Below, piece after piece: positions 851 to 32,664 of a DNA stretch of 36,962 nucleotides; the first letter of the stretch is position 1, and each line of letters starts with the position of its first letter. Below the pieces are notes generated by a model. The model did not search any database, was not told where the DNA came from, and saw only the letters and a program-made list of their open reading frames with translations. A program made the position numbers and the translations under genes. This stretch comes from a virus (lineage: Duplodnaviria > Heunggongvirae > Uroviricota > Caudoviricetes), in the IMG/VR virus record IMGVR_UViG_2534681703_000017; one strand, 5' to 3'.

Positions 851-867
851 ATTGCACCTGTGGCATA

Positions 868-916: not shown

Positions 917-928
917 TTTCACTAGGAT
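900..928 (+). promoter_or_regulatory. Putative sigma70 early promoter (Pe-like): -35 TTGACA 900-905, 17-nt spacer, -10 TAGGAT 923-928
   Basis: Hexamers and spacing read from sequence; located about 60 nt upstream of the ner start, with a GGAGAGG RBS just before the ATG at 989. Confidence 0.45.
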
Positions 929-988
929 TTATCACATCAGATAAATGGTTTTGATTATCTGAATCGATAAATTGGAGAGGATCACACA

Positions 989-1261
989 ATGCAGTTATCG
1001 AGACAAGATCTAACTGACTTGTTTGTTCGTCGCGGACAAGACTGGTCTAGCAAAGCAATTGCAGCCGCCCTTGATAATAAAGGGGTTGATATCACTACGA
1101 TGGAGCGTGTACGCGGCTTAAAACCTGGTGCAATGCGTAACGTGTTTTATCGCCGCGTACCTGCATATGAATCAGCAATTGCAGAAGCAATTGGTGTGGA
1201 ACCGGAAGTTATCTGGCCATCACGTTATCGGAATAAAAATCCGCATAGCAACGCTGCATAG
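989..1261 (+). CDS. ner: Ner/Nlp-family DNA-binding regulator
   Basis: 90-aa ORF immediately upstream of the transposase; C-terminal EAIGVEPEVIWPSRY matches the Ner/Nlp signature (..DPWVIWPSRY) as remembered. Confidence 0.7.
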   Translation: MQLSRQDLTDLFVRRGQDWSSKAIAAALDNKGVDITTMERVRGLKPGAMRNVFYRRVPAYESAIAEAIGVEPEVIWPSRYRNKNPHSNAA

Positions 1262-1269
1262 GTGATGTT

Positions 1270-3312: not shown

Positions 3313-3330
3313 TTTAAAAGGTATTTAATT

Positions 3331-4224
3331 ATGAGTTTAATTACGCAATTAAATGACGTAATGGCCCGTCGCGGCTATACGCAGACCCACGTCGCCCGTG
3401 CTATTGGTCGTAGCAGCGCCGTTATCAACCAGTATTTACAGGGTAAATATCAGGGCGATATGGCTGATATTGAAGAACGCATTTCTGCCTTCGTGACCCG
3501 TGAGCGGGAAAAGGAAAACAGCCGCCGTATTAAAGCAAAGTTTGTGACCACCGGTATGGCTGCCAAAGGACTGGAGGTGCTGGCCTACGCTCACCTGGAA
3601 TGTGAAATCTGTGTGCTGTATGGCGCGGCAGGTCTTGGCAAAACAATGATTCTGCGTGAATACGCCTCCAGAAACCGGGATGCGGTCCTGATTGAGGCTG
3701 ACCCGGGCTATACAGCCAGGACACTGCTTGAGGAGTTGTGCCGCCAGCTGGGGGTAAAGGTTCGCGGCAACATTCACGAACTGATTGATGCCTGTGTGCG
3801 CGAACTGCGTGATTCCGGTCGTCTGCTGATGGTGGACGAGGCTGAACTGCTCCCCTATCGCGCACTGGAGGTTCTGCGCCGTCTGCATGACAAAGCGGGT
3901 ATCGGGGTTGTCCTGGCGGGTATGCCTCGTCTTCTGATTAATCTCAAGGGGCGTCGTGGTGAATTTGCGCAGTTATACAGCCGCGTGGCGCTGGCGCTTA
4001 ACCTGGGCGACATGCTGGCGCAGGAAGATTTTAACCAGATAGCCACCGGGCTGATGCCGGAAGCAGCAGAACGGGAAATCAGCGAGGCGCTTTACGCACG
4101 CTCGCTGGGTAATGCCCGCCGCCTGTTCAAACTGGCGCGTGGTGTGTACCGGATTTGTGATATCAGCGATGCGCCGGTCAGTGTGCAGGCCATTGATAAA
4201 TTCGCAGAAATGTTAATTCACTGA
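3331..4224 (+). CDS. B: MuB-like AAA+ ATPase (transposition target protein)
   Basis: 297 aa directly downstream of the transposase; Walker A GAAGLGKT; Walker B-like LLMVDEAE. Confidence 0.8.
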   Translation: MSLITQLNDVMARRGYTQTHVARAIGRSSAVINQYLQGKYQGDMADIEERISAFVTREREKENSRRIKAKFVTTGMAAKGLEVLAYAHLECEICVLYGAAGLGKTMILREYASRNRDAVLIEADPGYTARTLLEELCRQLGVKVRGNIHELIDACVRELRDSGRLLMVDEAELLPYRALEVLRRLHDKAGIGVVLAGMPRLLINLKGRRGEFAQLYSRVALALNLGDMLAQEDFNQIATGLMPEAAEREISEALYARSLGNARRLFKLARGVYRICDISDAPVSVQAIDKFAEMLIH

Positions 4225-4463
4225 TGGAGAACAAGATGATGGACAAGCAGACCATTAACGCCGTCCGTTCCCGTGCCCGTGTGGCCATCCACACCACCGG
4301 CGGTCGCGTAACTGGGCAACATCACCGTTTACCTGTGGTTTATGCCTGCCCGCCCGTGGGCGGCCCTGTATGGCCGGTAACGGAAATCATCCAGACATTC
4401 AGCGGCCTGCGCCGCGTGGTGAAAACGTCCTGTATCGACGGCTGCACCGTCGTATGGCAATAA
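4224..4463 (+). CDS. Hypothetical early protein (79 aa)
   Basis: ORF in operon context; start overlaps the B stop (ATGA). No recognisable motif. Confidence 0.4.
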   Translation: MENKMMDKQTINAVRSRARVAIHTTGGRVTGQHHRLPVVYACPPVGGPVWPVTEIIQTFSGLRRVVKTSCIDGCTVVWQ

Positions 4464-4475
4464 GAGGAAATCAGA

Positions 4476-4691
4476 ATGGCGGTTAAGTTAGAAGTAATTA
4501 TCTATACCGATGAAAAAGGCTGTGTTTTAACCCAGACCACGGGGAGTTATTCGAAGGACGGAGCTTCCGAAAAGGAGTTTCAGGTGGCAACAAGATTACA
4601 TGATGCTATCAAGGAAACGCTCAGAAATGACTATAACGGCGTGAATCTTTTTTCTGAAAATGTTGCGCCTCGCGCACATAACACACATTAA
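4476..4691 (+). CDS. Hypothetical early protein (71 aa)
   Basis: ORF in operon context; AGGAAA-like RBS a few nt upstream. Confidence 0.4.
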   Translation: MAVKLEVIIYTDEKGCVLTQTTGSYSKDGASEKEFQVATRLHDAIKETLRNDYNGVNLFSENVAPRAHNTH

Positions 4692-4720
4692 TCTGTAAAT
4701 ATCACTGAGGTAATTTAATT

Positions 4721-5365
4721 ATGACGACTGAAAATAAAGTTAAGCAATACACGAAAACTCAAGCGCCTGAAGGTTACTGGGTGGATGCCCGTGGCGTAAT
4801 GACACCTGAAAGCCTTATCAAAGATATTGACCGCGACCGCGAGCAGCTGGTCGGTGAGCTTGTGGAGATGGTGATTACTGCCTCCGCCTCACTGCGGGAA
4901 CTGAAACTGCGTGCGTTTGGTGATATCCAGGCATTTATTGACCTGTCGGCAGAGAAATACGGTGCTGTGAAAGGCGGCAAAAAAGGGAATATCACGCTTT
5001 ACAGCTTTGACGGGCGTTACAAGATTCAGCGCGCCATGCAGGACCGTATCGCGTTTGATGAACGCATTCAGACCGCGAAGGCGCTGATTGACGACTGTCT
5101 GGCTGACTGGACGGAAGGTGCGCGCCCTGAAATTAAAGCCATCATCAGTGAGGCATTCAGCACGGACAAGGAAGGCAACATCAACACCGGGCGCGTTCTG
5201 GCCCTGCGTCGCCTCGAAATTGAGGACGAACGCTGGAATAACGCCATGTCGCTGATTGGTGAAGCCGTCCAGGTGATTGGCAGCAAGAGCTATATTCGTG
5301 TGTATGAGCGCGTTGGTGATTCTGATGAATACCGCGCAATCCCTCTTGATATTGCAGGGGTTTAA
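4721..5365 (+). CDS. DUF3164-like protein of Mu-like phages
   Basis: 214-aa ORF in the early region; overall resemblance to the DUF3164 family seen in Mu-like prophages (recollection, not searched). Confidence 0.5.
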   Translation: MTTENKVKQYTKTQAPEGYWVDARGVMTPESLIKDIDRDREQLVGELVEMVITASASLRELKLRAFGDIQAFIDLSAEKYGAVKGGKKGNITLYSFDGRYKIQRAMQDRIAFDERIQTAKALIDDCLADWTEGARPEIKAIISEAFSTDKEGNINTGRVLALRRLEIEDERWNNAMSLIGEAVQVIGSKSYIRVYERVGDSDEYRAIPLDIAGV

Positions 5366-5366
5366 T

Positions 5367-5600
5367 ATGCATCAGAATATCAAAGAGTACAGAGCCGGAA
5401 ATAGTTGCGCGGCGTATTCGCTGGGCGCGTCCAGAGCAGAACAACGCGGCGATTATGACGAGGCAGAAAAACTGTGGCGCAAGGCAGCGCAAAGCCCGTG
5501 TAGCACCCTGCGCCGCACCTGGGCTGAACATCGTGCGGAGTTCTGCGCTAACGCTCACCTGAAGGGATGGAGGCCACGCCATGAATGCGAAGAACTTTAA
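5367..5600 (+). CDS. Hypothetical protein (78 aa)
   Basis: ATG at 5367 one nt after the stop of the preceding gene; in frame with track ORF 5277..5600, whose upstream part overlaps the DUF3164 gene. Confidence 0.4.
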   Translation: MHQNIKEYRAGNSCAAYSLGASRAEQRGDYDEAEKLWRKAAQSPCSTLRRTWAEHRAEFCANAHLKGWRPRHECEEL

Positions 5601-5772
5601 TAAGTTATATCCGCTTGGTACTCGTTTCATGCACATTGCACATCAGGCGGTGCGTGGTGGGCGGGTGGTAAAAACTGTTGCACCGGCCAGAGATTTTAAA
5701 TGTGGTTGTGTGATTGAAATTAATGTCGAGCCTTATTTCGTAAAAGTCGAAACACTGAAAGCACCGCATTAA
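5581..5772 (+). CDS. Hypothetical protein (63 aa)
   Basis: Track ORF overlapping the end of the preceding gene; operon context only. Confidence 0.3.
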   Translation: MNAKNFNKLYPLGTRFMHIAHQAVRGGRVVKTVAPARDFKCGCVIEINVEPYFVKVETLKAPH

Positions 5773-5780
5773 TTTAATTT

Positions 5781-5848
5781 GTTTTTAATTGTTATTTAAA
5801 ACAGGCGTAAACCCGCCGGGGCTGGCTTACGCCTGAATCTGGAGGATT
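5781..5848 (+). repeat. Leader element copy 1: AT-rich block, hairpin GGCGTAA-N16-TTACGCC (5804-5833), then TGAATCTGGAGGATT carrying the RBS
   Basis: Near-identical ~65-bp element repeated at 6407-6472; each copy ends 6-10 nt before a start codon. Confidence 0.6.
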
Positions 5849-5853
5849 TGTAT

Positions 5854-6399
5854 ATGAAAGATAAAGTCTGGGATTTTATTGTTGCTCCTGAAGGTTTTGC
5901 CACCCGTTCATCTGAGAAGTTAACCAATGTAACGTTATGGGCATCATCATTGCTGGGCCATCTGGGAGCACCTGCCGATTTTATGTATGTGGTACTTGAT
6001 GCGCAGATTGCCGGAAATGCTGTGGCCAGTAATGGGGCTTATATTCAGGGGGATTTGTTCGCCATGATGGCGAATGACACAGCAGCGCTGTATATCGCCA
6101 CACGGAACATACTGACAAGAATATCCATGCTGTCTGACTGTAAGGATATGGAAGACCTCGCATACATCCTTGAAGATGATTTGCTCACTATTTCAGGTGT
6201 GCAGGAATCCCTCTCGCGTCAGTTGCGGTTTATTGAACTGATGGAGTCATATAAAGATAAGCCTGATTTTTTTCAGATTCGATTCAGCGGGATGGAACTG
6301 CTGGATAAATATTATCCGCTGGATTCGATTGCCCGTGATGTGAAGGCGTTCGTTAAGTCTGTTGGCCGCCATTACTGGAAAGCTGAACGTCGTAGTTAA
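5854..6399 (+). CDS. Hypothetical accessory early protein (181 aa)
   Basis: ATG at 5854 lies 8 nt after GGAGG (5841-5845); the track start at 5848 is a TTG in the same frame. No recognised domain. Confidence 0.5.
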   Translation: MKDKVWDFIVAPEGFATRSSEKLTNVTLWASSLLGHLGAPADFMYVVLDAQIAGNAVASNGAYIQGDLFAMMANDTAALYIATRNILTRISMLSDCKDMEDLAYILEDDLLTISGVQESLSRQLRFIELMESYKDKPDFFQIRFSGMELLDKYYPLDSIARDVKAFVKSVGRHYWKAERRS

Positions 6400-6406
6400 T
6401 AAGTCT

Positions 6407-6472
6407 GTTTTTAATTTTATTTGTATATGGCGTAAACCCGCCGGGGCTGGCTTACGCCTGAATCTGAGGGAT
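6407..6472 (+). repeat. Leader element copy 2: hairpin 6429-6458 plus TGAATCTGAGGGATT
   Basis: Second copy of the 5781-5848 element, immediately upstream of the gene at 6478. Confidence 0.6.
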
Positions 6473-6477
6473 TCATT

Positions 6478-7194
6478 ATGGAAAATAAAAGCAAATACAT
6501 CGCCAAAATTAAAAAGCTGTTACGCCTTGCCAGAGGAACATCAAGCCCGGAAGAAGCCGCTAACGCTATTGCAAAAGCCCAGGCTTATATGCGCCAGCAT
6601 GGCATCAGCGAAAACGACGCTGAATTGTTCGACATTCAGGAAGCTGCCAGCGCGGGTGCGCCGAGTGATGCCAGTACACCGCCGCGTTATATGCACATCC
6701 TGTGTGACCTGGTCTGTAAAGCCTTCGGTGTCGAGTGTTACATCTCCGGCGAATACCGGGCTTCTGGTTCACTCAAACGTTACGTTCGTTTTTATGGTCC
6801 TGACAGCCGCCCGGAAATTGCGGCATATGCGTTTGATGTGCTTTCCCGTCAGATGATGGCAGAGCGCAAGAAATATCAGGATAAACACTGCAAACGTTGC
6901 GGCCCGTCCACGCGGGTGGCCCGTGGCGACCAGTTCTGCGAAGGCTGGGTCTTTGGTGCCCGTGATGTCATTGCGGTGTATGACGTCTCCCCGGAAGAAA
7001 AAAGCCGCCTTGAGCTTTACAGAAAGAACCTGCACAGCACTAAGGGACTGCGCGACGGGGATATGCGCACAGCTAAAGCGTGCCGGGGTGCAGAGTTTGC
7101 CGCTACTGCCGGTTTTATCGCCGGGAAAAACGCCAGACTGCATCAGGGGGTTAATGGTCAGAGCAACAAAACGCTGGCACTGGGGAGGGTGTAA
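6478..7194 (+). CDS. DUF2786-like protein
   Basis: N-terminal KIKKLLRLARGTSSPEEAANAIAKAQAYM resembles the DUF2786 signature as remembered; Cys-containing C-terminal half (CKRCG...CEGW). Confidence 0.5.
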   Translation: MENKSKYIAKIKKLLRLARGTSSPEEAANAIAKAQAYMRQHGISENDAELFDIQEAASAGAPSDASTPPRYMHILCDLVCKAFGVECYISGEYRASGSLKRYVRFYGPDSRPEIAAYAFDVLSRQMMAERKKYQDKHCKRCGPSTRVARGDQFCEGWVFGARDVIAVYDVSPEEKSRLELYRKNLHSTKGLRDGDMRTAKACRGAEFAATAGFIAGKNARLHQGVNGQSNKTLALGRV

Positions 7195-7196
7195 CG

Positions 7197-7424
7197 ATGG
7201 CTTTTAAACTTCTCAGTGTTACCGAAGCAATATACCAGCCGCCCGGAGAACGCCACGAATACAGGATGAATGACGGTAGCGCGGCGGTTGAGTTCCCCGG
7301 ATATCCGGGGGCTTCCCGGTGGCGGTTCTATGACAGTGCGGGACGCCGGATTATTAAAAGAATCGTGCACAACGCCATGAAAGCCGCTGTAGAACGTCAC
7401 AAAAGGAGGTTTAACTGCAAATGA
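7197..7424 (+). CDS. Hypothetical small protein (75 aa)
   Basis: Start 3 nt after the previous stop; part of a chain of translationally coupled small ORFs. Confidence 0.4.
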   Translation: MAFKLLSVTEAIYQPPGERHEYRMNDGSAAVEFPGYPGASRWRFYDSAGRRIIKRIVHNAMKAAVERHKRRFNCK

Positions 7425-7645
7425 ATATTGAATTTTATAACTATGGGACTAAAGCAAAAATCATTGTTACCTGCTGGCTCTGGGAGTTTCGCCGCTATAA
7501 CCGGGTTGTGGATGCGGCGCTTTTTGTGGCCCCTGAAGTGCACCATCAGAGCGGTGGCGGTCTTTTAATGAGAACCGTCATCTACGGTAAGACGGTCCCG
7601 ATGTTACGGGCGTTTAAAGTGGCAAAACAGGAGGCTGCACAATGA
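7421..7645 (+). CDS. Hypothetical small protein (74 aa)
   Basis: Start overlaps the previous stop (ATGA-type coupling). Confidence 0.4.
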   Translation: MNIEFYNYGTKAKIIVTCWLWEFRRYNRVVDAALFVAPEVHHQSGGGLLMRTVIYGKTVPMLRAFKVAKQEAAQ

Positions 7646-7833
7646 GTAACGAGCACATCCATCATTATCAGCGTGATGGGTCAATTTTCATATGCCAGCG
7701 TTGCGGCACAGCAAAGCATCGTAATGGTAAATACTGGTGGGCCGGTCGCTATTCAGAATCTGAACCACCATGTGTTGATGATGTTGTGGGGCAGGATGCG
7801 TGGTTTGAAACTGCAAAAAGCGAGGAAGGATGA
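7642..7833 (+). CDS. Small CxxC-containing protein (63 aa), possible zinc ribbon
   Basis: CQRC motif plus a third Cys and several His; start overlaps the previous stop. Confidence 0.4.
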   Translation: MSNEHIHHYQRDGSIFICQRCGTAKHRNGKYWWAGRYSESEPPCVDDVVGQDAWFETAKSEEG

Positions 7834-7834
7834 G

Positions 7835-8023
7835 ATGAAAAACCGTAAGGCAAGACTGCTGATAGCAAAGCCCGGGCAGTGTATCCGTATCTCAAACAGG
7901 CTTGTTATTTACTATAGATATCTGGGTTTTAGGGGGGGTTCCTCTATTCGTTTTTACGGTGTCTGGCGGAGCAGAAGCGCGGCGCAAAACCGCTGGAGGA
8001 ATCACGGAGCAACAACACGATGA
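7835..8023 (+). CDS. Hypothetical small basic protein (62 aa)
   Basis: ATG at 7835 just after the previous stop and preceded by GGAAGGA; in frame with track ORF 7673..8023. Confidence 0.35.
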   Translation: MKNRKARLLIAKPGQCIRISNRLVIYYRYLGFRGGSSIRFYGVWRSRSAAQNRWRNHGATTR

Positions 8024-8205
8024 AAACTATCACTGTAACGGTTGAAATCGACGTTCCTGATAACGCAACGGACAATGATATTGCTGATTTTGTCGATGTC
8101 GAGTATGGGGAGTGCGGAAAAATGGCACTTGATAACCCATGCCGGACAGATGGAACGGAAATACTCGATGCCAGATGGGAACACGGACCTGATTACGCGA
8201 GGTGA
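8020..8205 (+). CDS. Hypothetical small acidic protein (61 aa)
   Basis: Start overlaps the previous stop. Confidence 0.4.
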   Translation: MKTITVTVEIDVPDNATDNDIADFVDVEYGECGKMALDNPCRTDGTEILDARWEHGPDYAR

Positions 8206-8208
8206 AAT

Positions 8209-8466
8209 ATGAGATTGGTTGACCTTTTTATTATCGCTCTGATTATTACGGTTATTGCGCTTTGCGTTACAACGGGCAAGGAACCTGATGTTCCTGGTGA
8301 TACGGGTGGGCATTGCGTGGTAAGGAGAAGTTTCATCAAAACCATTACGCATTGTGATGATGGAAGCGCCACCATGACCAGCGGCGATAAGTTTATATAC
8401 TGCTCTGCCGGGAAAGATGGCACGCCATCCTGTCATGAAGTGACGCTCAGTGATGGTGATAAATAA
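8209..8466 (+). CDS. Small exported or membrane-anchored Cys-rich protein (85 aa)
   Basis: Hydrophobic N-terminus (LVDLFIIALIITVIALCV) followed by a four-Cys soluble part. Confidence 0.4.
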   Translation: MRLVDLFIIALIITVIALCVTTGKEPDVPGDTGGHCVVRRSFIKTITHCDDGSATMTSGDKFIYCSAGKDGTPSCHEVTLSDGDK

Positions 8467-8499
8467 TTCATCATGTTGAGCGGATAATAATCATGCGCA

Positions 8500-8543
8500 G
8501 ACCAAAACATATGTTTTGGTCTGCCAAAAGTGATGTTTTGGTC
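8500..8543. promoter_or_regulatory. Perfect 22-bp palindrome GACCAAAACATATGTTTTGGTC (8500-8521) plus direct copy of half-site ATGTTTTGGTC (8533-8543)
   Basis: Read directly from sequence; candidate dimeric protein-binding site inside the early region. Confidence 0.45.
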
Positions 8544-8546
8544 ATT

Positions 8547-8825
8547 ATGAAAATTGAACAAATCGGAATAGCTGCCTTCAGGCAGCAGGCTGAAAGCGGT
8601 GGTGTGGATGAGTTCGTCGTGCAGCGGTTCGGTGGTGTGTATCACCTCTTCGCTGTGAATCGCCGCGCCGGGGTGTCCTATTTTCTACAGGAACGCCGTG
8701 GCGATTACAAGACGTGGCTGTCTCTTGACCGTGCCGCCGCGTTCCTGTCGGGGATTGGTGTTTCACGTTTTACCGTGCGTTTTGAGGATAACAAACATGC
8801 TGAAAAAGATGATCGGGGCCATTAA
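8547..8825 (+). CDS. Hypothetical protein (92 aa; track ORF starts at 8493)
   Basis: In-frame ATGs at 8493, 8511 and 8547; the first two lie inside the palindrome, so the start is uncertain. 3' end overlaps the GemA-like gene. Confidence 0.3.
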   Translation: MKIEQIGIAAFRQQAESGGVDEFVVQRFGGVYHLFAVNRRAGVSYFLQERRGDYKTWLSLDRAAAFLSGIGVSRFTVRFEDNKHAEKDDRGH

Positions 8826-9192
8826 AGCCGGTCAGGCGTATCTGGGGTGGGATGATGCCCTTTATCGCCAGACGCTGGCCCGCCTGACCGGTAAAACCAG
8901 CACCACACGCTGCAATCTCGATGAACTGCGCATCATCCGGGAATACATGCACGAACAGGGATTCCCGCGCAAGGCACCCGCTGGTAAAGGTCGCCGCCCT
9001 CGTGTTGCAATGAGCAGAAAATCAGTATTATCCAAAATTGAAGCGTTGCTGGCTGATGCCGGTCGTTCCTGGGCGTATGTAGAAGGACTGGCATCTCACA
9101 TGTATAAGCAACATGTGATCGAATGGCTGACGGATGAACAGCTTTTTGGAGTGATGGTGGCGCTGGTTAAAGATTCAAGGAGACGTAAATGA
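8797..9192 (+). CDS. GemA-like (Mu gp16 family) protein
   Basis: ATG at 8797 preceded by GAGGA; LGWDDALYRQTLARLTGKTS...LRIIREYM resembles GemA/DUF1018 as remembered; the track ORF 8698..9192 extends upstream in the same frame. Confidence 0.5.
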   Translation: MLKKMIGAIKAGQAYLGWDDALYRQTLARLTGKTSTTRCNLDELRIIREYMHEQGFPRKAPAGKGRRPRVAMSRKSVLSKIEALLADAGRSWAYVEGLASHMYKQHVIEWLTDEQLFGVMVALVKDSRRRK

Positions 9193-9527
9193 AAAAACTG
9201 TTATTACTTATTCTGACTTTATGTTTTACAGGGATATCCCATGCTTCTGATTCAGAGGAAGATTTGATCAAAAAAACATTACAGGGCGATTATCAGGCAC
9301 AACGTAATCTGGCTTATTCATACATGAATGGCTGGGATGATATTTCAAAGGATACCATCAGAGGATGCGCTCTCAGGAAGGTTATTCTCTTAACACAAGC
9401 CCAAGCTGACATTGGCGATTATGGAAATGAAGCCATAGATTGTCGAAAAGTGCATCCAACAGATAACCAGAAAGTATGGGAGTATGTCAGAGGATACCTG
9501 GTGTTGATAAACGAGAATAAAAAATAA
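9189..9527 (+). CDS. Secreted (signal-peptide) protein, unknown function
   Basis: N-terminus MKKLLLLILTLCFTGISHA is a classic cleavable signal peptide; sits between the GemA-like and Mor/C-like genes. Confidence 0.5.
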   Translation: MKKLLLLILTLCFTGISHASDSEEDLIKKTLQGDYQAQRNLAYSYMNGWDDISKDTIRGCALRKVILLTQAQADIGDYGNEAIDCRKVHPTDNQKVWEYVRGYLVLINENKK

Positions 9528-9539
9528 TATGAATAACAA

Positions 9540-9563
9540 CCTTCGCAAACGCGGAGGTTTTTT
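9540..9563 (+). terminator. Putative intrinsic terminator: CCTTCGC-AAAC-GCGGAGG (one G-U pair) followed by TTTTTT
   Basis: Stem-loop and T-run read from sequence, directly downstream of the gene ending at 9527. Confidence 0.5.
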
Positions 9564-9569
9564 ATGGTC

Positions 9570-9597
9570 TGTACAGGCGATCATGTATGGCTATAAT
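9570..9597 (+). promoter_or_regulatory. Putative promoter with strong -10 (TATAAT 9592-9597) and weak -35 (TGTACA 9570-9575)
   Basis: Hexamers read from sequence, 16-nt spacer; placed between the terminator and the Mor/C-like gene. A poor -35 would fit an activator-dependent promoter. Confidence 0.35.
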
Positions 9598-9626
9598 AAC
9601 AGTAAGTTACTAACGGAGACGCCATC

Positions 9627-10094
9627 ATGCAGACCTTCAGTGAAACAGATCTTCGCGATGCACAGGCACTGCTACCCGATTCCGTACAGCAACTGATTAG
9701 CGTGATTGGCTTCCCCGCCCTGACCCGGTTGATTTGTTCTTTTGGTGGTGTGACGTTAAGTGGTAAAACCGGCGCACACGCCGAACGCACCGGCGGTGTC
9801 CATGCCCTGTTACATGACGTGCTGACCGAAGACGAAATCAACAAACTGATCCGCTTTCTTGGCGGTGCACCGTTTTACATTCCCCGTTGCGATCATGCGT
9901 TACGTGCCCTGCGTAACACCCGTTTTATGGCTGATTTACAGCAGCATGTAAAAGGCGGATGCTCACACCGGCAGGCGCTGGCACTGCTCTGTCCCCGTTA
10001 CGGCATTTCAGACCGGTACGCATGGCAGCTGATACACCGACGACAAAAACAGACTTCGCTGAAAAGCCCCACCCAGGTGGGGCTTTTTGATTAA
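9627..10094 (+). CDS. Mor/C-family transcription activator
   Basis: 155 aa; FLGGAPFYIPR and C-terminal HTH-like ISDRYAWQLIHRR resemble the Mu Mor/C family (..GGQVYIPRG..) as remembered. Confidence 0.6.
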   Translation: MQTFSETDLRDAQALLPDSVQQLISVIGFPALTRLICSFGGVTLSGKTGAHAERTGGVHALLHDVLTEDEINKLIRFLGGAPFYIPRCDHALRALRNTRFMADLQQHVKGGCSHRQALALLCPRYGISDRYAWQLIHRRQKQTSLKSPTQVGLFD

Positions 10095-10121
10095 TGGGCC
10101 TCAGAAAAAAGGAGACACGAA

Positions 10122-10409
10122 ATGATGCGTTCTGACACCGATATCGACTATGCAGTACTCGGTGAATATACCGCATTTTCAGACAAGGCCCGGGATGCAG
10201 CCCGTCGCCGACATGCTGAAATGTGTAATTTATCCAGTTACCTGGCGAAACAGGCCCAAAGCCCGGAATCAGTAACGAATCATGATGAAGTGCTGTCAGC
10301 CGTAAACAGAATGATTGACGCAGAACGGGAAATGCGTAATGCCGTGGAAAGAGCTAACCTGCTGGCGCGGGCATGTTATAAGCCACCATTAAAACTCGCT
10401 TCTCTTTAA
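10122..10409 (+). CDS. Hypothetical protein (95 aa)
   Basis: Track ORF with AAGGAGA-like RBS upstream. Confidence 0.4.
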   Translation: MMRSDTDIDYAVLGEYTAFSDKARDAARRRHAEMCNLSSYLAKQAQSPESVTNHDEVLSAVNRMIDAEREMRNAVERANLLARACYKPPLKLASL

Positions 10410-10432
10410 CCCATCCAGATAATCAACCTGCC

Positions 10433-10461
10433 GGGGGTGCTGAACTCCCCCAGCAGTACCC
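10433..10461. promoter_or_regulatory. Conserved late-region motif, copy A (GGGGGTGCTGAACTCCCCCAGCAGTACCC)
   Basis: Shares GGGTGCTGAAC plus C-rich tract and CAGTACCC with 17855-17883; lies in the ~190-bp gap upstream of the lysis genes. Confidence 0.45.
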
Positions 10462-10596
10462 ACCACACCAGACCGTTTACCCTGTCCACTCAGACCACAA
10501 GGCACCTTAAGGGATAGCGCCCTGCAAAAGGCTTTTGTGCCTTTGACAGGGTGTTATTTACGGGCCGTCAGTGGCTCAGATTTACAGGAGAAACTC

Positions 10597-10989
10597 ATGT
10601 CTGAACCCTTATCAGGCGGCGGAGCTGTGGCAGTCACCATCGGTGGTGCCAGTGTGTTTGGCCTTCTCACCAATACTGATTTCGGGGTCGTGGTGGGCGC
10701 GTTTGCTGGGGCGCTTTTTGTTGTCACGCAGCAGAAAGAAATCCCGGCATGGCGAATGGCTATTCACCTGCTCGTCGCGTTTGTGGTTGGCGTTCTGGGG
10801 GCTGGCGTGGCTGCGTCACTGATGCAGTGGCTGACCCACTATAACGACAAACCGCTTGATGCATTGTGTGCGGTCGGTGTCTCGGCGTTATCCATCAAGA
10901 TACTGACCTTTCTTTATCAACAGGAAATTTCATCGCTGTTCGGCCTGTTTTCCAGACTGCGCGGCGGAGGGGGTGGAAATGGAAAGTAG
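10597..10989 (+). CDS. Multi-pass membrane protein, putative holin
   Basis: ATG 10597 after CAGGAG; three to four hydrophobic segments; first gene of the lysis cassette. Confidence 0.45.
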   Translation: MSEPLSGGGAVAVTIGGASVFGLLTNTDFGVVVGAFAGALFVVTQQKEIPAWRMAIHLLVAFVVGVLGAGVAASLMQWLTHYNDKPLDALCAVGVSALSIKILTFLYQQEISSLFGLFSRLRGGGGGNGK

Positions 10990-11275
10990 CCTTGCCGGTA
11001 TCGTGAACGTCTGGCTGTGTCTCGCCATTGTGCTGGGGTTGTTTGTATATCGCCGACACGGTGCGGCGCATAAACCGATGATTACCTGGCTGGCGTACTG
11101 GCTGATGCTCGGCTACATCATCATCCCGTTCCGCTGGCTGTCCGGTACATACACGCACTCCAGCTGGCTGGTTGTGGCGCTGAATCTGGTTTTCTGTGCG
11201 CTTATCGTGTGGGCGCACGGGAATTTGTCAAAAATCCTTTCGTTACTGAGGCATCCACATGAAATCAAAAGATGA
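10973..11275 (+). CDS. Membrane protein, putative holin/antiholin
   Basis: 100 aa with about three predicted transmembrane helices, immediately upstream of the endolysin. Confidence 0.45.
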   Translation: MEMESSLAGIVNVWLCLAIVLGLFVYRRHGAAHKPMITWLAYWLMLGYIIIPFRWLSGTYTHSSWLVVALNLVFCALIVWAHGNLSKILSLLRHPHEIKR

Positions 11276-11804
11276 CATTTTTGATGAAGTCCTGGGCAAA
11301 GAAGGCGGTTACGTCAATCACCCGGACGATAAGGGCGGTCCGACCAAATGGGGCATTACGGAAAAAGTTGCCCGCGCCCACGGATACCGTGGCGATATGC
11401 GCAATTTAACCCGCGAACAGGCGCTGGACATCCTTGAAGCTGATTACTGGTATGGCCCGCGATTTGACCAGGTTGCGGCATTATCCCCTGATATTGCCGC
11501 AGAGCTGTGTGATACCGGTGTGAATATGGGGCCATCTGTGGCGTCAAGAATGCTTCAGCGCTGGCTGAATGTGTTCAATCTGCGCGGCAGGATGTATCCC
11601 GATATGGATGCAGACGGACGCATCGGGCCTCGCACCATCAGTGCATTGCGCGCCTTCCTGAATAATCGCGGTCAGGACGGTGAACGGGTGATGCTGACGG
11701 CCCTGAACTGCACGCAGGGGGACTGCTATCTGGAACTGGCAGAGAAACGCGAGGCTAACGAATCGTTTGTTTATGGCTGGCTGAAGGAGCGCGTGGCGGT
11801 ATGA
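11259..11804 (+). CDS. Endolysin, GH108-type lysozyme with C-terminal peptidoglycan-binding domain
   Basis: N-terminal GGYVNHPDDKGGPTKWGIT is the GH108 signature as remembered; no N-terminal signal-anchor. Confidence 0.7.
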   Translation: MKSKDDIFDEVLGKEGGYVNHPDDKGGPTKWGITEKVARAHGYRGDMRNLTREQALDILEADYWYGPRFDQVAALSPDIAAELCDTGVNMGPSVASRMLQRWLNVFNLRGRMYPDMDADGRIGPRTISALRAFLNNRGQDGERVMLTALNCTQGDCYLELAEKREANESFVYGWLKERVAV

Positions 11805-11983
11805 CGCGTCAGTACTGGACCCACAGAACGCCACGTAAAGCCGCGCGCTGTGTTCTGGCCCTGTTTCTGGTGATGTTGCTTCCGGTGGGATGCACAGACA
11901 TTAACAGAGCGGGCCAGCTGTTTGACGCGGCGGCGCAGGTCTGCCGGATTATTGACGGTATCCGGCAGTGTTCGCAGAACTGA
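11801..11983 (+). CDS. Small lipoprotein-like or membrane protein (60 aa), possible spanin component
   Basis: Basic N-terminus, hydrophobic stretch ending LPVGC, three Cys; overlaps the endolysin stop. Lipobox is non-canonical. Confidence 0.3.
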   Translation: MTRQYWTHRTPRKAARCVLALFLVMLLPVGCTDINRAGQLFDAAAQVCRIIDGIRQCSQN

Positions 11984-12056
11984 TTTTTTGAGGTCTGACA
12001 TAGTGAGCATTATCAGATTTACAGAATACAGAGGTTCAGGAGGTGCTGGCGCTGTC

Positions 12057-12209
12057 ATGGTGCTCGCTGAACGCATCACCCATTTTTACCGTCAGTACGG
12101 TACACATGATGGCACGGTCATTGAACTGGATACCGGGAAAAACGTGTATGTTCTTGAAAATCCCGACGAAGTTAAATGTCTGATTGAACAGGATCAGAAG
12201 GACACTTAA
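12057..12209 (+). CDS. Hypothetical small protein (50 aa)
   Basis: ATG 12057 about 13 nt after AGGAGG; in frame with the longer track ORF 11922..12209; start uncertain. Confidence 0.25.
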   Translation: MVLAERITHFYRQYGTHDGTVIELDTGKNVYVLENPDEVKCLIEQDQKDT

Positions 12210-12709
12210 TGGCGTGGTCACAGGATATCAGGGACAAAGTCCGTAACGGGTACATCTTTGACCAGCTTCCGCTGGATATCGTCGCCATGAAGTACGCCGT
12301 GCCGCACGACACCGCGCGGCGCTGGAAAACGCAGGCAATGAAGAACGGCGACGACTGGGACAAGCTGCGGGCCGCGCACGCGCTCGCCGGTGACGGGCTG
12401 GAAAGTGTCGCCCGCACCGTGCTTATCAGTCTGGTGGTGAAGTGTCAGACGACGCTTGAGCGGCTGAACCAGAACCCGGACATCCCGCCGCAGGAGTCCG
12501 TCGAACTGCTGGCGAGTCTGTCTGACAGTCTCAGTAAGGCGGTGGCCAGCAGCAAAAAAATCCTGCCGGAAACCGACCGGCTCGCCACGGCACTGGAAGT
12601 GGTGCAGCGGCTCGGCGCGTTCATCAAGGAGCGTCACCCGGCACAGTATGCCCCGTTTCTTGAGGTGCTCGAAGGCTTCGCTAAAGAGCTTGAGGATAAT
12701 TTCAGTTAA
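12209..12709 (+). CDS. Putative terminase small subunit (Mu gp27-like, DUF1804-like)
   Basis: 166-aa ORF immediately upstream of the large terminase; family assignment from memory and synteny. Confidence 0.45.
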   Translation: MAWSQDIRDKVRNGYIFDQLPLDIVAMKYAVPHDTARRWKTQAMKNGDDWDKLRAAHALAGDGLESVARTVLISLVVKCQTTLERLNQNPDIPPQESVELLASLSDSLSKAVASSKKILPETDRLATALEVVQRLGAFIKERHPAQYAPFLEVLEGFAKELEDNFS

Positions 12710-12715
12710 CCACAG

Positions 12716-12735
12716 CGGCCCGGTTTTCCGGGCCG
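12716..12735 (+). other. Stable hairpin CGGCCCGG-TTTT-CCGGGCCG between the two terminase genes
   Basis: Perfect 8-bp GC stem with 4-nt loop read from sequence; the following sequence is only weakly T-rich. Confidence 0.4.
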
Positions 12736-12743
12736 TCTGATAT

Positions 12744-14402
12744 TTGTATACCAGGTGTGACGTGGCAAAACGTAAACTTTCCATTAAAGAGTTTCAGAGA
12801 AGCTTACAGGAATATATCGCCAACCTCCGCCAGACCATTGAGGCTGAATGTCTGGGGTTCGATGTTAACCCGCAGGCCACACAGGCCCGCCGGGCGGCAG
12901 TCTGCGACCCGGTGACGGGCTACGATTATTTTGTCGAAAACTATTTCCCGCACTACGTCCGCAACCCGGCAAAAAGTGAGCTGCATAAATACCTGTTCAG
13001 CCGTCTGCCACAGGTTGTGGCAAGCCCTGACCCGGAGAACGACGCCATCGCCGCGCCCCGTGGTGAAGCAAAATCCACGCTGGTGACGCAGCTGTTTACC
13101 CTGTGGACCATTATCCGGGCCATTAAACATTACCCGGTCATCATTATGGACAGTATCGACCAGGCTTATCCGATGCTGGAAGCCATCAAGGCTGAACTGG
13201 AATTTAACCCCCGTTTAAAAAACGATTTCCCGGAAGTGTGCGGTCAGGGGCGCGTCTGGCGTATGGGGACCATTGTCACGGCTAACAATATCAAGGTGAC
13301 CGTTGCCGGTAGTGGTAAAAAGCTGCGTGGTCTGCGCCACGGTCCGTACCGTCCTGACCTGGTCATCCTCGACGACATCGAGAACGACGAGATGGTGCGT
13401 AACCCGGAGCAGCGCGACAAGCTGCATGACTGGCTCACTAAAGCCGTGATGCCGCTGGGTGAGGCTGGCGGTAAAACCGATATTATTTATATCGGGACCA
13501 TCCTGCATTACGACTCCGTACTGTCGCGCACGCTGAATAACCCGATGTGGAAAACGGCCCGCTTTAAGGCAGTTATTCAGTGGCCTGCCAATATGAAGCT
13601 GTGGGACGAGTGGGAAGAACTCATCCGCAACAAACAGCCGGAAGCAGCAGAGGCACTTTACCGACAGAACGAAGCTGACATGCTCGCCGGGTCGGTGGTG
13701 TCATGGGCGGCGCGTCCCCTGCTGGCACTGATGAAAATCCGTGTCCGTGACGGTCATGACACCTTTGATTCTGAATACCAGAACGACCCGGTCAGCGGTG
13801 AAGATGCGCTGTTTGCGGGCTGCATTAAGTTCTGGGTTAACCGTCTTGATGAATGGGTGTTTTATGGTGCGGTTGACCCCAGTCTCGGGAAGAAAAACAA
13901 AAACCGTGACCCGTCGGCCATTCTCGTGGGGGGCTTTAACCGCTTTACCGGCATTCTGGATGTGGTTGAAGCCGATATCCGCCGACGACTGCCAAACAAA
14001 CTTATCGAGGACGTGATTAAGTATCAGCGGGAATATCACTGCCTGTGCTGGTCGTTTGAGTCCGTTCAGTTTCAGGAGTTTCTGCGTACCGTGCTGGTTG
14101 AGCGTTCGGCGGCGCTGGGCGTTCCGGTTCCGGCGCTGCCGGTCATCCCGCTGGAGGATAAGGCGCTGCGTATCGAATCCCTTCAGCCGCATATGGCCAA
14201 CGGCCTGATTCGTATCAGTCACACACATCAGACACTGATTGACCAGCTGCGCCACTACCCCAAAGCCGACCACGATGATGGCCCGGACTGTCTGCACATG
14301 CTGTGGACGCTGGCGGTATCGCGTAGCGCAAAATTTCAGATACACACCCCACGCAGCACCGGGCGTGACCGTGGCGGGCGTTTTGGTTCAGGAGGATGGT
14401 AA
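12744..14402 (+). CDS. Terminase large subunit (Mu gp28-like)
   Basis: 552 aa; Walker A-like motif around PRGEAKST; position before the portal. Start uncertain (TTG 12744 or in-frame GTG 12762). Confidence 0.75.
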   Translation: MYTRCDVAKRKLSIKEFQRSLQEYIANLRQTIEAECLGFDVNPQATQARRAAVCDPVTGYDYFVENYFPHYVRNPAKSELHKYLFSRLPQVVASPDPENDAIAAPRGEAKSTLVTQLFTLWTIIRAIKHYPVIIMDSIDQAYPMLEAIKAELEFNPRLKNDFPEVCGQGRVWRMGTIVTANNIKVTVAGSGKKLRGLRHGPYRPDLVILDDIENDEMVRNPEQRDKLHDWLTKAVMPLGEAGGKTDIIYIGTILHYDSVLSRTLNNPMWKTARFKAVIQWPANMKLWDEWEELIRNKQPEAAEALYRQNEADMLAGSVVSWAARPLLALMKIRVRDGHDTFDSEYQNDPVSGEDALFAGCIKFWVNRLDEWVFYGAVDPSLGKKNKNRDPSAILVGGFNRFTGILDVVEADIRRRLPNKLIEDVIKYQREYHCLCWSFESVQFQEFLRTVLVERSAALGVPVPALPVIPLEDKALRIESLQPHMANGLIRISHTHQTLIDQLRHYPKADHDDGPDCLHMLWTLAVSRSAKFQIHTPRSTGRDRGGRFGSGGW

Positions 14403-14405
14403 TTA

Positions 14406-16001
14406 ATGGCACAGCTTGTTGATATTTGCGGACGCCCGCTGAAACGTGAGGCACTCAAAACCACGCAGTCGGTCAGAGTGGCGGAACGGCTGCGCATTTA
14501 TCCAGACCACCCGTCGCGTGGTCTGAACATCAGAAAACTGCCGCGCATTCTGGAAGCTGCCGAACGCGGTTATCTTCCGGCGCAGGCGATGCTGTTTGCG
14601 GATATGGAAGAGCGTGATGGTCATCTGTTCGCCGAGATGGAAAAGCGCAAAAAAGCGTTGCTGACGCTGGACTGGTCGGTGGAGCCGCCCCGCAATGCCT
14701 CGAAGGCAGAAAAGGAGCTGACTGCCGCCGTGGATGAGTGGCTGCACGGCATCCCGGACATGGAGGACATCATCCTCAACGGGATGACCAGTGTCGGTTA
14801 TGGCTTCAGTTGTCAGGAAATCAGCTGGGCGTTCGTGGATAAAACGTGGTTACCGGATGCGGTGACGCTGCGCCCGCATAACTGGTTTATTACCCTGCCG
14901 GAACACAATGACGAACTCCGGCTGGATGACGGCAACCGTGGGGAAGATGGTAAGGACGGCTCTGCACTGTGGCCGTTCGGCTGGCTGGTTCATCGTTACA
15001 ACGCCAGGTCGGGATTTCTGGGTTCATCCGGCCTGTTCCGCGTACTGGTCTGGCCGTATCTGTTTAAAAACTTCGCGCTGCGTGATATGGCGGAGTTTCT
15101 GGAGATTTACGGCCTTCCGGCGCGCATTGCGTACTATGCACAGGGCACCAGTGACGAGGACCGGGACAACATTCTTGAGGCGCTGGTCAATCTGGGTCAT
15201 GAAGCGGTGGCAGCCCTGCCGCAGGGTAACGAAATTGAGTTCAAGGAGGCCGCGTCCGGCGGACCGGAGGCGTTCATGTCGATGGTGGAATGGGCAGAGC
15301 GCACCACCTCAAAAGTGATTCTGGGCAGTACGCTGACCAGCCAGGCCGACGGTAAAACCTCCACCAACGCACTGGGTAATGTCCATAACGAGGTCAGGCA
15401 CGACATTCTGGCCGCCGATGCGCGCCAGCTGTCCGGCATGTTCAGCAGCCTGATACAGATGATGTCCAGCCTCAACGGCTGGCAGGATATCCCGCCACGC
15501 CGTCTGCCGCGACTGGTGTTTGATGTGCAGCAGGAAGCCGACATTAAGGGCGTGGCGGAAGCCGTCAGCGTGCTGGTCAACAATGTGGGAATGAAGGATA
15601 TCCCGGTGTCGTGGGTACGCAAAAAAACCGGTATCCCCACCCCGAAAGACGGCGAAGAGGTACTGGTGCCGGTGGCACAGCGTCTCCCTGTGCAGGCGGG
15701 CCTCAGCCAGTTGCGTGAGCGGCTGAATGTCGTCGCACTCAGTCAGCAGGACAACGGGGAGGACGACCCGGCACAACGCGCCATCGACCGGGCAGAACTT
15801 CCGGCAGAGGCCATCGCGCAGGGGATGAACGAACTGGTGGCCCCGCTGGTGCAGGCCATACAGGAAGGCCGGGATGCAGACGAGGCTATGAACGTACTGG
15901 CGGAAGCATGGCCGGAACTGCCGGATGAAACGCTGCGGCAGTTGCTGACACAGGCATTCTTTGTGGCGGATATCTGGGGGCGACTGAATGCCGAAAGCTG
16001 A
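14406..16001 (+). CDS. Portal protein (Mu gp29-like, DUF935)
   Basis: 531 aa following the large terminase; synteny and size. Confidence 0.75.
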   Translation: MAQLVDICGRPLKREALKTTQSVRVAERLRIYPDHPSRGLNIRKLPRILEAAERGYLPAQAMLFADMEERDGHLFAEMEKRKKALLTLDWSVEPPRNASKAEKELTAAVDEWLHGIPDMEDIILNGMTSVGYGFSCQEISWAFVDKTWLPDAVTLRPHNWFITLPEHNDELRLDDGNRGEDGKDGSALWPFGWLVHRYNARSGFLGSSGLFRVLVWPYLFKNFALRDMAEFLEIYGLPARIAYYAQGTSDEDRDNILEALVNLGHEAVAALPQGNEIEFKEAASGGPEAFMSMVEWAERTTSKVILGSTLTSQADGKTSTNALGNVHNEVRHDILAADARQLSGMFSSLIQMMSSLNGWQDIPPRRLPRLVFDVQQEADIKGVAEAVSVLVNNVGMKDIPVSWVRKKTGIPTPKDGEEVLVPVAQRLPVQAGLSQLRERLNVVALSQQDNGEDDPAQRAIDRAELPAEAIAQGMNELVAPLVQAIQEGRDADEAMNVLAEAWPELPDETLRQLLTQAFFVADIWGRLNAES

Positions 16002-17154
16002 CGATGTTGACCTGGGGTATGCGTACACCCTGAAACCGGAAGAAGCGATTAAGTATTTCGAAAGCAAGGGATACGTTATCGGCTTCCGCTGGCACGATGT
16101 GAAGGACATCGCCAGTGCCCGGGCGTTCACGGTGGCGGGCGTGCTGAAACTGGATGTGCTGAAGGATATCCGTGATGGACTGACGGCGGCACTGGCTGAC
16201 GGCGGGACGTTCCGGGAGTTTGCTGCACAACTGGAACCACTGCTGGAATCAAAAGGCTGGCTGGGTAAAAAACTGATTGTGGACGAGGACACCGGCGAAC
16301 TGCATGGCAGGCAGCTGACGCCGCGCCGGTTGCGTACGCTATTCGATACCAATATTCAGTCGTCATATAACGCCGGGCGTTATCAGCAACAGATGGCGAA
16401 CGTGGCTGACCGGCCTTATTTTGAGCGCGTGGCGGTGATGGACCTTCACACGCGCCCGAAACACGCCGCCCTGAACGGTTTTACCGCCCGGGCGGATGAC
16501 CCTGTCTGGGAGTATTTCTACGCGCCGGACGGATACGGATGCCGCTGCCGTATCCGTGCGCGTTCGGCGTCTGATGTGGAGAAATACGGCCTGACGGTGC
16601 AGAGCAGCGAGGGGCGACTGGTTGAGGTTGAACAGGAATATGGCCAGCCGGGCCAGACCATCAGAACGATGGGTCTGAAGATGCCGGATGGCTCCGTGTA
16701 TACCGCCGACCCGGGCTTCGGATTTAATCCCGGTCGGGTGGCATGGCAGCCGGAACTGGAAAAATATGATTACCGTAGCGCCCGCCAGTATGTCACCGGC
16801 ACCCTGACCGGGCCGGATTTTGCCCGGGGACTGGCGAACGTCAGCAAACTGGATGCGCGCCAGCGATATCCGCTGGCCATCCGTTCACCGGAACAGGTCG
16901 CTGCCACGGGCGCTGCACGGCAGACGGTAAACCTGACGGCTGACGTCATGAAGCGCCTCAGTGCAACAGACACGCCCCCGACCGCCGCCGACTATGTGCT
17001 GATGCAGCAGACCATCGAACGGGCGGAGCATGTCACGCAGGACGGCAACGCGTGGCGGTATGCGTTACAGTCAGGCGACCGCTGGTCGGTGGTGACGGTT
17101 GAGGATGACGTGCTGACAGACTGGGTTATGCAGGACACACCGGAGGCATCATGA
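15988..17154 (+). CDS. Head morphogenesis protein (Mu F / gp30-like)
   Basis: 388 aa after the portal, start overlapping the portal stop; Mu F position. Confidence 0.7.
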   Translation: MPKADDVDLGYAYTLKPEEAIKYFESKGYVIGFRWHDVKDIASARAFTVAGVLKLDVLKDIRDGLTAALADGGTFREFAAQLEPLLESKGWLGKKLIVDEDTGELHGRQLTPRRLRTLFDTNIQSSYNAGRYQQQMANVADRPYFERVAVMDLHTRPKHAALNGFTARADDPVWEYFYAPDGYGCRCRIRARSASDVEKYGLTVQSSEGRLVEVEQEYGQPGQTIRTMGLKMPDGSVYTADPGFGFNPGRVAWQPELEKYDYRSARQYVTGTLTGPDFARGLANVSKLDARQRYPLAIRSPEQVAATGAARQTVNLTADVMKRLSATDTPPTAADYVLMQQTIERAEHVTQDGNAWRYALQSGDRWSVVTVEDDVLTDWVMQDTPEAS

Positions 17155-29803: not shown

Positions 29804-29841
29804 ACCTGATTCTGACCTGTCCATGCTGCCAGACTGGCGGC

Positions 29842-31271: not shown

Positions 31272-31274
31272 TTC

Positions 31275-32650: not shown

Positions 32651-32664
32651 TTAAGGAGAAAATA

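Follow-up and report, generated by a model that had tools for sequence, protein, structure and literature searches.

Phage Mu is the textbook case of a three-stage cascade, in which two paralogous activators, Mor and C, take part. How the late genes are switched on where only one such activator is encoded is the question raised by a 36,962-nucleotide stretch of viral DNA (IMG/VR record IMGVR_UViG_2534681703_000017, the whole of which is called the window below), identified by its gene layout and by the genomes that match it as a Mu-like transposable prophage of Escherichia coli. It carries on its plus strand, at 9627-10094, a gene of the Mor/C family for a C-like late transcription activator of 155 residues, behind a predicted terminator and a predicted promoter of its own. 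The reading that we favour, at a probability of roughly 0.6, is that this gene constitutes a one-activator late switch in an insulated cassette, with a promoter that may be a weak-to-moderate sigma-70 promoter gated by a factor from outside the Mor/C family. A Mu-like phage with a single activator is already described and is not new; for the conserved terminator-promoter-gene-terminator cassette and its promoter we found no description in the literature.

Only one Mor/C-family gene is found in the window

The initial annotation of this DNA had recognised a single Mor/C-family gene and allowed for two explanations, a cascade shortened to one activator or a second member too diverged to be seen, perhaps at 10122-10409 or in the neighbourhood of the GemA-like gene, and had proposed a Mor/C profile search. 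This search was run over all 687 stop-to-stop open reading frames (ORFs) of at least 30 residues in the six frames of the whole window, with filters off and with a family hidden Markov model (HMM) built from 18 diverse members including Mu Mor and Mu C. It gave one match, the product of 9627-10094 (E=2e-67), the next best being an E=0.58 hit in the B ATPase. A model made from Mu Mor and Mu C alone likewise matched only 9627-10094 (E=5e-6, next ORF E=2), and in a sensitivity control a model without the Mu proteins recovered both C (2e-7) and Mor (2e-5) from Mu DNA at equal database size. Profile-profile comparison of the 41 plus-strand ORFs in 900-12800 by hhalign gave nothing above 12% probability. 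With the same profile, related phages that have two activators give E of about 1e-45 for their second paralogue, so a relative of it in the window would have been detected. Judged by these profiles, the absence of a second Mor-family gene is real and not an effect of divergence: the pair of paralogous activators that a Mu-type genome carries is replaced here by one match among 687 ORFs, and of the two explanations it is the shortened cascade that stands.

Neither of the places suggested for a second member holds one. The conserved gene downstream of the activator (10122-10409, plus strand, 95 residues) is ruled out as a Mor/C activator by its hhalign probability of 0.2% and by its predicted fold, a two-helix hairpin (AlphaFold, predicted local distance difference test score 80, helices at residues 10-46 and 54-85) for which Foldseek returned only generic coiled-coil matches; a homologue search with its product found close homologues only, all labelled 'hypothetical'. 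Near gemA, the ORF at 9189-9527, which occupies the position of Mu mor, is ruled out as a diverged Mor-type gene by an hhalign probability of 0.4%, by its signal peptide and by its character as AT-rich, swappable cargo. When ten further early ORFs were compared with Pfam, the only DNA binders among them were the repressor (HTH_3) and a Ner-like protein (HTH_35).

The activator is nearer to Mu C than to Mu Mor

The product of 9627-10094 scores 29.1 bits against the Pfam Mor family (PF08765, cutoff 24.9) and has a full-length match to PHROG 836, 'late transcriptional activator' (E=1.5e-42), while a 98%-identical E. coli copy is labelled 'Mor transcription activator family protein' by the Prokaryotic Genome Annotation Pipeline (PGAP). 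Its ATG at 9627 stands 8 nt behind a candidate ribosome-binding site, GGAG at 9615-9618 on the plus strand, and the protein ends in ...SPTQVGLFD. A profile of the window clade finds Mu C in the PDB (9l0x) at E=2.8e-5, the alignment extending through the C-terminal QPDLF of C, and Mu Mor (1rr7) at E=0.003; the clade HMM gives Mu C 26.0 bits versus 19.9 for Mu Mor. By these profile scores the window activator is nearer to Mu C than to Mu Mor. A PDB search with the single sequence reaches Mu C at E=0.58, and identity to Mu C is only about 20-25%.

Two segments carry the likeness. The glycine-rich linker and beta strand (GGxxxYIP) of the window activator, FLGGAPFYIPRC, align with FLGGRQFYIPCG of Mu C, and the G, Y and P of the linker are invariant or nearly so among 18 clade members. 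The C-terminal QVGLF stands opposite the QPDLF of Mu C in the alignment, and its Q and L are at least 90% conserved in the clade. Late transcription by Mu C depends on its clamp-binding motifs and on the beta clamp, and overproduction of C is lethal (Ho and Harshey, PMC12867686); such motifs, a C-terminal QPDLF and an N-terminal Qx[DE][LM]F, are general in the Mor/MuC family (PMC12867686). From its place at the position of the Mu C QPDLF, QVGLF is probably a clamp-binding-like motif; the N-terminal form (Qx[DE][LM]F) was looked for in the window activator and is absent.

Three candidate late promoters

The sequence GTGCTGAACNCC matches the window three times, against 0.02 times expected, always on the plus strand and always between genes. 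At each site a -10-like hexamer lies exactly 38 nt downstream and there is no -35. The first putative late promoter (10437-10483; box GTGCTGAACTCC at 10437-10448, TACCCT at 10478-10483) precedes the holin, endolysin and packaging genes, the second (17858-17904; box GTGCTGAACACC, CATCAT at 17899-17904) the head protease and capsid genes, and the third (29789-29835; again box GTGCTGAACACC, CAGACT at 29830-29835) the baseplate and tail genes. A relaxed scan of the window for the box gave no further intergenic site. In relatives a box of the form CTGAAC(C/A)CC(T)TC stands ahead of the lysis genes, and over 59 non-redundant instances, a set that includes noise from coding sequence, the hexamer that starts exactly 38 nt after the C of CTGAAC has (T/A)ATACT as its consensus, with A at position 2 in 41 of the 59 and T at position 6 in 42. 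A box at about -50 to -39 without a -35 is, as far as the arrangement of these predicted elements goes, the geometry of a Mor/C-dependent promoter, as given for Mu in PMC4287176, PMC4390567 and PMC2582627.

At the second and third sites the ATG follows the -10-like hexamer by 7-8 nt (17912) and 6-7 nt (29842), with no Shine-Dalgarno sequence, and the head and tail operon messages may be leaderless.

The activator has a predicted terminator and a predicted promoter ahead of it

Ahead of the activator gene the initial annotation had described a terminator-like hairpin with a T-run and a promoter with a good -10 and a poor -35. Both are present. The hairpin, AACCTTCGC-AAAC-GCGGAGGTT (9538-9559; stem 9538-9546/9551-9559, loop 9547-9550), runs into six T (9558-9563) on the plus strand at the end of the early operon, directly ahead of the promoter, which is where Mu too places its early terminator relative to the promoter of the late activator. 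It folds at -13.1 kcal/mol (z=-3.8; none of 200 shuffles as good) and ranks second among the terminator-like sites in a scan of 1-14000. The promoter (9569-9597, plus strand) consists of C-TGTACA, with the -35 hexamer at 9570-9575, a 16 bp spacer and TATAAT at 9592-9597; it matches the consensus at 10 of 12 positions, the -35 at four of six and the -10 perfectly, and thus has the two hexamers within the 16-18 bp of a predicted sigma-70 promoter, placed to serve the gene downstream. A T-tract lies at about -46 to -41. From these positions we infer a transcription start near 9604, a leader of 23 nt and a message of about 490 nt.

The raw consensus scans are not significant on their own, since they returned 27 terminator-like sites (16.3 +/- 4.0 expected) and 10 promoter-like sites (15.3 +/- 4.1 expected); the case rests on position and on conservation in relatives. 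The blocks CTGTACA, CGATCA and GGCTATAAT are unchanged in L008, whose activator is 81% identical, and in L009 from Salmonella (66%), where the stems upstream differ, are GC-rich and still end in a T-run. The exact pattern CTGTACA-NN-CGATCA-N5-GGCTATAAT occurs in 17 IMG/VR contigs, in every one directly upstream of the activator ATG and directly downstream of a hairpin with a T-run. An unbiased scan that started from the protein gave CTGTACAGATGATCATTGCTGACTATAAT as the promoter of L060 (92% identity) and CTGTACAGGTGATCAGTGCTGGTTATAAT as that of L013 from Edwardsiella (54%). Across the five lineages (the window, L008, L060, L062/L009 and Edwardsiella L013, protein identity down to 54%) C-TGTACA, GATCA, a TG at -16/-15 and TATAAT are invariant and eight other spacer positions vary. 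By this pattern of conservation the predicted promoter belongs to the activator module.

The terminator is kept in a different manner, as structure. A hairpin with a T-run stands at its position in 20 of 20 window-type IMG/VR loci as well as in L008, L009 and L013, with at least six different stem sequences, each followed by 5-7 T, and with folds that in relatives are stronger (-15 to -18 kcal/mol). This argues that 9538-9563 would act as a genuine intrinsic terminator. A role for the hairpin as a Mu-like activator dyad is ruled out, as its stem sequence is unconserved while structure and T-run are kept, and its centre lies near -55. An origin with the cargo gene that precedes it is ruled out as well, because at least seven relatives without cargo keep the order gemA, hairpin, promoter; the terminator, being present where the cargo gene is absent, is part of the conserved design.

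The further suggestion of the initial annotation, that this is the architecture of an activator-dependent promoter, does not hold in the Mu sense. A -35 is missing from Mu Pm and from the late promoters of Mu, which carry an activator site centred near -43.5 (PMC4287176, PMC4390567). The window promoter has a four-of-six TGTACA set 16 bp from a consensus -10, with a T-tract upstream, and no late box of the GTGCTGAACNCC type in register. Dyads and repeats upstream of its -35 are limited to the terminator stem, centred near -55 and unconserved in sequence. Taken together, the elements and the single gene that had been noted earlier are borne out, whereas the hidden second member and the Mor/C-type promoter are not.

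Other modes of control were considered and rejected. Autoregulation through the late box is suggested by CTGTACA, one base from CTGAACA, but the -10 is offset by 23 nt and not 38, and no -10-like hexamer lies 38 nt downstream of CTGTACA. An extended -10 is excluded by the invariant TG, which is one base too far upstream. Control by the repressor is excluded by the lack of its operator near the promoter: the motif ACAAAAATCCGT, present in three copies at the early promoter Pe (TTGACA-17-TAGGAT, 900-928), has no copy in 9150-11216 with up to three mismatches. A repeated operator is excluded too, as the 15-mer CTGTACAGGCGATCA occurs nowhere else in the window. At Pe itself ACAAAAATCCG(T/C) occurs three times within 867-917, twice in direct and once in inverted orientation, and overlaps the early promoter; these copies are likely repressor operators.

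A second predicted terminator lies within the last codons of the gene

A second predicted intrinsic terminator occupies the last nine codons of the activator (10061-10088, plus strand; stem 10066-10072/10077-10083, U-tract 10084-10088), so that the gene would be bracketed by terminators. It is formed by AAAAGCCCCAC-CCAG-GTGGGGCTTTTT, folds at -20.6 kcal/mol (z=-4.5) and is absent from the results of the consensus scan. The same DNA encodes ...KSPTQVGLF, including the QVGLF motif, and the stop codon (10092-10094) lies four bases past the U-tract. The sequence is nearly invariant in the window-type lineages L008, L060 and L062, and in Edwardsiella L013 it shows a compensatory change of A-U to G-C, which alters two residues as well, T to A and V to A. 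In the alignment 93.8% of cells are paired with one compensatory pair, the covariation statistics being weak with four distinct sequences. The hairpin is absent from the other two wiring classes described below.

Transcripts stopped at this terminator would probably lack the stop codon, and ribosomes translating the activator would be expected to disrupt the hairpin. The arrangement suggests either translation-coupled read-through into 10122-10409 or tagging by transfer-messenger RNA; a possibility that would go with it is that untagged activator comes only from read-through or from tightly translated messages.

How the switch may be timed

In the one-activator reading early transcription from Pe would stop at 9538-9563, and the activator would then be made from its own promoter as the short message starting near 9604. 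It would bind the three boxes and directly switch on the operons for lysis/packaging, head and tail, with no Mor-like intermediate, and QVGLF would probably tie its function to replicating phage DNA. The promoter shows signs of regulation, in its conserved insulation from Pe and its extra invariant bases, and signs of intrinsic activity, in its perfect -10, partial -35 and upstream T-tract. The insulated version raises the question of how timing and silencing in the lysogen are achieved without the early promoter or a Mor-type control.

Several points weigh against this reading. The transcription start, the terminator efficiencies and the promoter activity are all read from the DNA, and binding to the three boxes is deduced from conservation and from the geometry of the promoters. 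In the window all three -10-like hexamers are weak. The fold that marks the family is an intertwined dimer or tetramer with a C-terminal helix-turn-helix; a fold search with the AlphaFold monomer of the activator retrieved neither Mor nor C, a result that we regard as uninformative for a domain-swapped oligomer. Lastly, a freely active promoter would express the lysis genes in the lysogen, so some control must exist.

The alternative that survives best, although clearly less probable, is that 9570-9597 is a promoter in need of an early phage protein from a family other than Mor/C, which would keep a cascade of two steps. The conserved terminator upstream suggests selection to uncouple the gene from Pe, which is best understood if the promoter is turned on by something later, TGTACA lacks the two best-conserved bases of TTGACA, and the invariant C before it could, with GATCA, form a protein-binding site; moreover, the lysogen must silence the promoter and no repressor operator is near. 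Such a protein would, however, have to be found among early ORFs in which Pfam shows only the HTH_3 repressor and the HTH_35 Ner-like protein as DNA binders, and would have to act where no dyad or repeat other than the unconserved terminator lies upstream of the -35, on a promoter whose perfect TATAAT and T-tract favour unaided activity.

We consider it unlikely that the promoter is active at a low constitutive level, lysogens included, with timing left to a clamp-dependent activator and with the terminators capping a toxic dose. The ordinary sigma-70 appearance of the promoter and the two flanking terminators would accord with this, as would the alignment of QVGLF with the QPDLF of Mu C and the clamp dependence and lethality of that protein (PMC12867686). 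But host forks load clamps on the prophage in each generation, so that leakage of holin and endolysin would be expected, Mu C is not made in lysogens, and clamp binding by the window activator is predicted from its motif.

The spacer of the promoter offers the best lead on its timing. GATC, the Dam site, stands there at 9579-9582 (about -25 to -22), is invariant across the clade and is the only GATC conserved in every clade lineage. In the window as a whole GATC is depleted five-fold (27 sites versus about 141-151 expected), and the sites cluster in 50-1345 and 8811-9891, with none in 1346-8810, 12193-18988 or 26816-36857; five are in the repressor/Pe/ner control region, and seven of the 27 lie within 8811-9891, around gemA, the cargo gene, the activator promoter and the activator gene. 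GATC is not depleted in the Mu stretch examined. On its conservation the invariant Dam site is our leading candidate for the timing of the promoter. The specific proposal that the promoter is a replication sensor, with Dam methylation of the spacer GATC setting its activity, is a tentative one and we would not bet on it: the fully methylated site in the lysogen would give low activity, and the hemimethylated or unmethylated site after replication high activity. The IS10 transposase promoter is under comparable control by Dam methylation. If the proposal is true, replication coupling through the Dam site and the clamp-binding motif would replace the Mor step of Mu.

Very improbable is a promoter-like sequence that is unused, the activator being expressed only by transcripts from the early promoter that pass a leaky terminator. 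In about half of the relatives the activator is indeed the last cistron of the early operon, and the window hairpin is moderate, at -13 kcal/mol with one G-U pair; yet TGTACA and TATAAT are invariant although most neighbouring positions differ and the proteins are 54-66% identical, and the terminators of relatives at the same place are stronger, which fits poorly with any need for read-through. Least probable of all is a highly diverged second Mor/C activator hidden among the early ORFs, at 10122-10409 or near gemA, an idea that comes from the analogy with Mu and for which nothing was found, and which is opposed by negative HMM and hhalign searches with a working positive control, by the helical hairpin and the signal peptide of the two candidates, and by the ease with which the second paralogue of relatives is detected.

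Three wirings of one activator family

A census of 80 IMG/VR loci gave three classes of wiring. Class A (20 loci, 66-99% identity to the window activator) has one activator, 96-600 nt past gemA, with a hairpin and T-run near -78 and the TGTACA/TATAAT promoter. In class B (about 20 loci, 44-57% identity) there are two Mor-family genes, in one case three; the downstream paralogue has a late-type box, with a -10 at the 38-nt offset, about 100 nt ahead of it and a hairpin with T-run in its leader. In the about 40 loci of class C the sole activator gene overlaps the gemA end and lacks a separate promoter. Among genome contigs class C is found in Serratia, Trabulsiella, Intestinirhabdus and Buttiauxella and class B in Xenorhabdus and Photorhabdus; the hosts of the insulated cassette clade are E. 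coli, Salmonella and Edwardsiella. A rough neighbour-joining tree groups the downstream paralogue of class B, some class C proteins and the window protein, and sets the upstream paralogues in a separate clade. Among close relatives one activator family thus occurs in three interchangeable wirings: joined to the early operon, as two members in series, or as a lone gene with its own ordinary promoter.

In class B (L016 2912-3000, L017 and about 20 IMG/VR loci) two late boxes stand before the downstream paralogue, the second overlapping the predicted -10 (AATACT), and the leader hairpin contains the predicted start within its 5' arm. With the start there, this hairpin would stop only read-through transcripts. 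As far as these predicted elements go, class B follows the same insulation logic as Mu and the window with other parts. In L013 of Edwardsiella hoshinae, at 165-215, a tandem late-type box (CTGAACCCTGAACCCT) lies between the gemA stop and the terminator, with no -10 at 38 nt; it may be a relic of a class B-like arrangement.

Relation to Mu and to other Mu-like phages

The window activator resembles Mu C in its family, in its FLGGxxFYIP linker and C-terminal Q..LF, in the place of its gene just upstream of the lysis genes with a terminator before it, and in putative target promoters that have a -10, no -35 and a box at -50 to -39; as in Mu, the late operons (lysis, head, tail) number three or four. 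It differs from Mu C in its box, GTGCTGAACNCC against the TTAT-N5-6-ATAA of Mu C (PMC12867686), in lacking an N-terminal QxDLF, and in the terminator inside its last codons. Mu C is expressed from the strictly Mor-dependent Pm, the window activator from a predicted promoter that has a -35-like hexamer but lacks an activator box. The order of gemA, early terminator, promoter and late-gene activator parallels that of Mor and Pm in Mu, but no mor gene is present in the window and the mor position holds a secreted cargo protein gene or, in relatives, nothing. Pm has no -35 and a Mor dyad at -51 to -36 (PMC4287176), unlike the window promoter with its TGTACA at 16 bp; published coordinates were used for this comparison, as the Mor site could not be reliably located in the Mu sequence.

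One Mor-family gene between gemA and the lysis genes is also the arrangement of SuMu (Haemophilus), 3927AP2 (Mannheimia), the Pseudomonas D3112/MP22 group and VW-6B. Absence of a C gene has been reported for SuMu, 3927AP2 and phiMhaMu2 (PMC4553209), and the core genes of the Pseudomonas group include GemA and a single Mor (PMC4378225). The window activator is only 30-41% identical to those of the single-activator Mu-like phages, and in MP22 and VW-6B, unlike in the window, the gene lacks a separate promoter and overlaps gemA; the CTGTACA..GATCA..TATAAT cassette is specific to the enterobacterial clade. Xenorhabdus L016, Photorhabdus L017 and the about 20 two-activator IMG/VR contigs share the late box and a downstream paralogue of 44-57% identity, but carry an extra upstream Mor-family gene and lack the CTGTACA/TATAAT promoter. 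The window locus is a regulatory variant of a well-known system and is relevant chiefly to the timing of phage development. Its short conserved promoter and recognisable predicted targets make it a convenient system in which to study possible replication-coupled control, by Dam methylation and the beta clamp, and its defined parts (promoter, two terminators, activator, box) are useful for annotating enterobacterial Mu-like prophages.

Cargo slot and genomic setting

The last conserved gene of the early operon is the gemA-like gene at 8698-9192 on the plus strand (Pfam GemA, PF06252, E=7e-18; PGAP labels a homologue of its product 'gp16 family protein'). Between it and the terminator lies the variable cargo gene (9189-9527, plus strand), which encodes 112 residues with a signal peptide, MKKLLLLILTLCFTGISHA, matches PHROG 5882 (function unknown) and has a GC content of 38-42% against 54-59% in its flanks. 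In relatives this slot holds unrelated ORFs of 93, 112, 158/159, 167 or 174/175 residues, or is empty (at least seven relatives), hairpin and promoter then following gemA directly; the swap was observed in the window, L008, L009, L016 and L027-L043. By these features the slot ORFs resemble lysogenic-conversion cargo that would be expressed last in the early operon. Signal peptides are present in both the window and the Xenorhabdus slot ORFs, and the window ORF has a weak Sel1-like match. Inside the AT-rich cargo gene an antisense promoter-like site on the minus strand (9446-9418, TCGACA-17-CATAAT, 10 of 12 matches) may be a chance product of AT-rich DNA.

Prophages in 58 of 5,426 complete E. 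coli genomes match the region 8600-11000 at 95-99% identity, while megablast of this region against 50,697 deposited phage genomes gave no close match and no named isolated relative. The annotated copy in NZ_CP082831 begins with genes for a repressor, a Ner-like protein, a Mu-type transposase, an AAA ATPase, small early proteins, a gp16/GemA-family protein and the Mor-family protein, and continues with holins, endolysin, terminase, portal, head genes of the Mu F/G/I/T type and a contractile tail; the ORFs of the window match this layout. A search of the window for known RNA families found none. In the 98%-identical NZ_CP082831 prophage the DUF1804 gene and terL are separated by a DNA methyltransferase gene, which the Salmonella relative has at a different position; the window is without it at 12710-12745, and at this junction it carries a strong hairpin (12715-12736, -22 kcal/mol).

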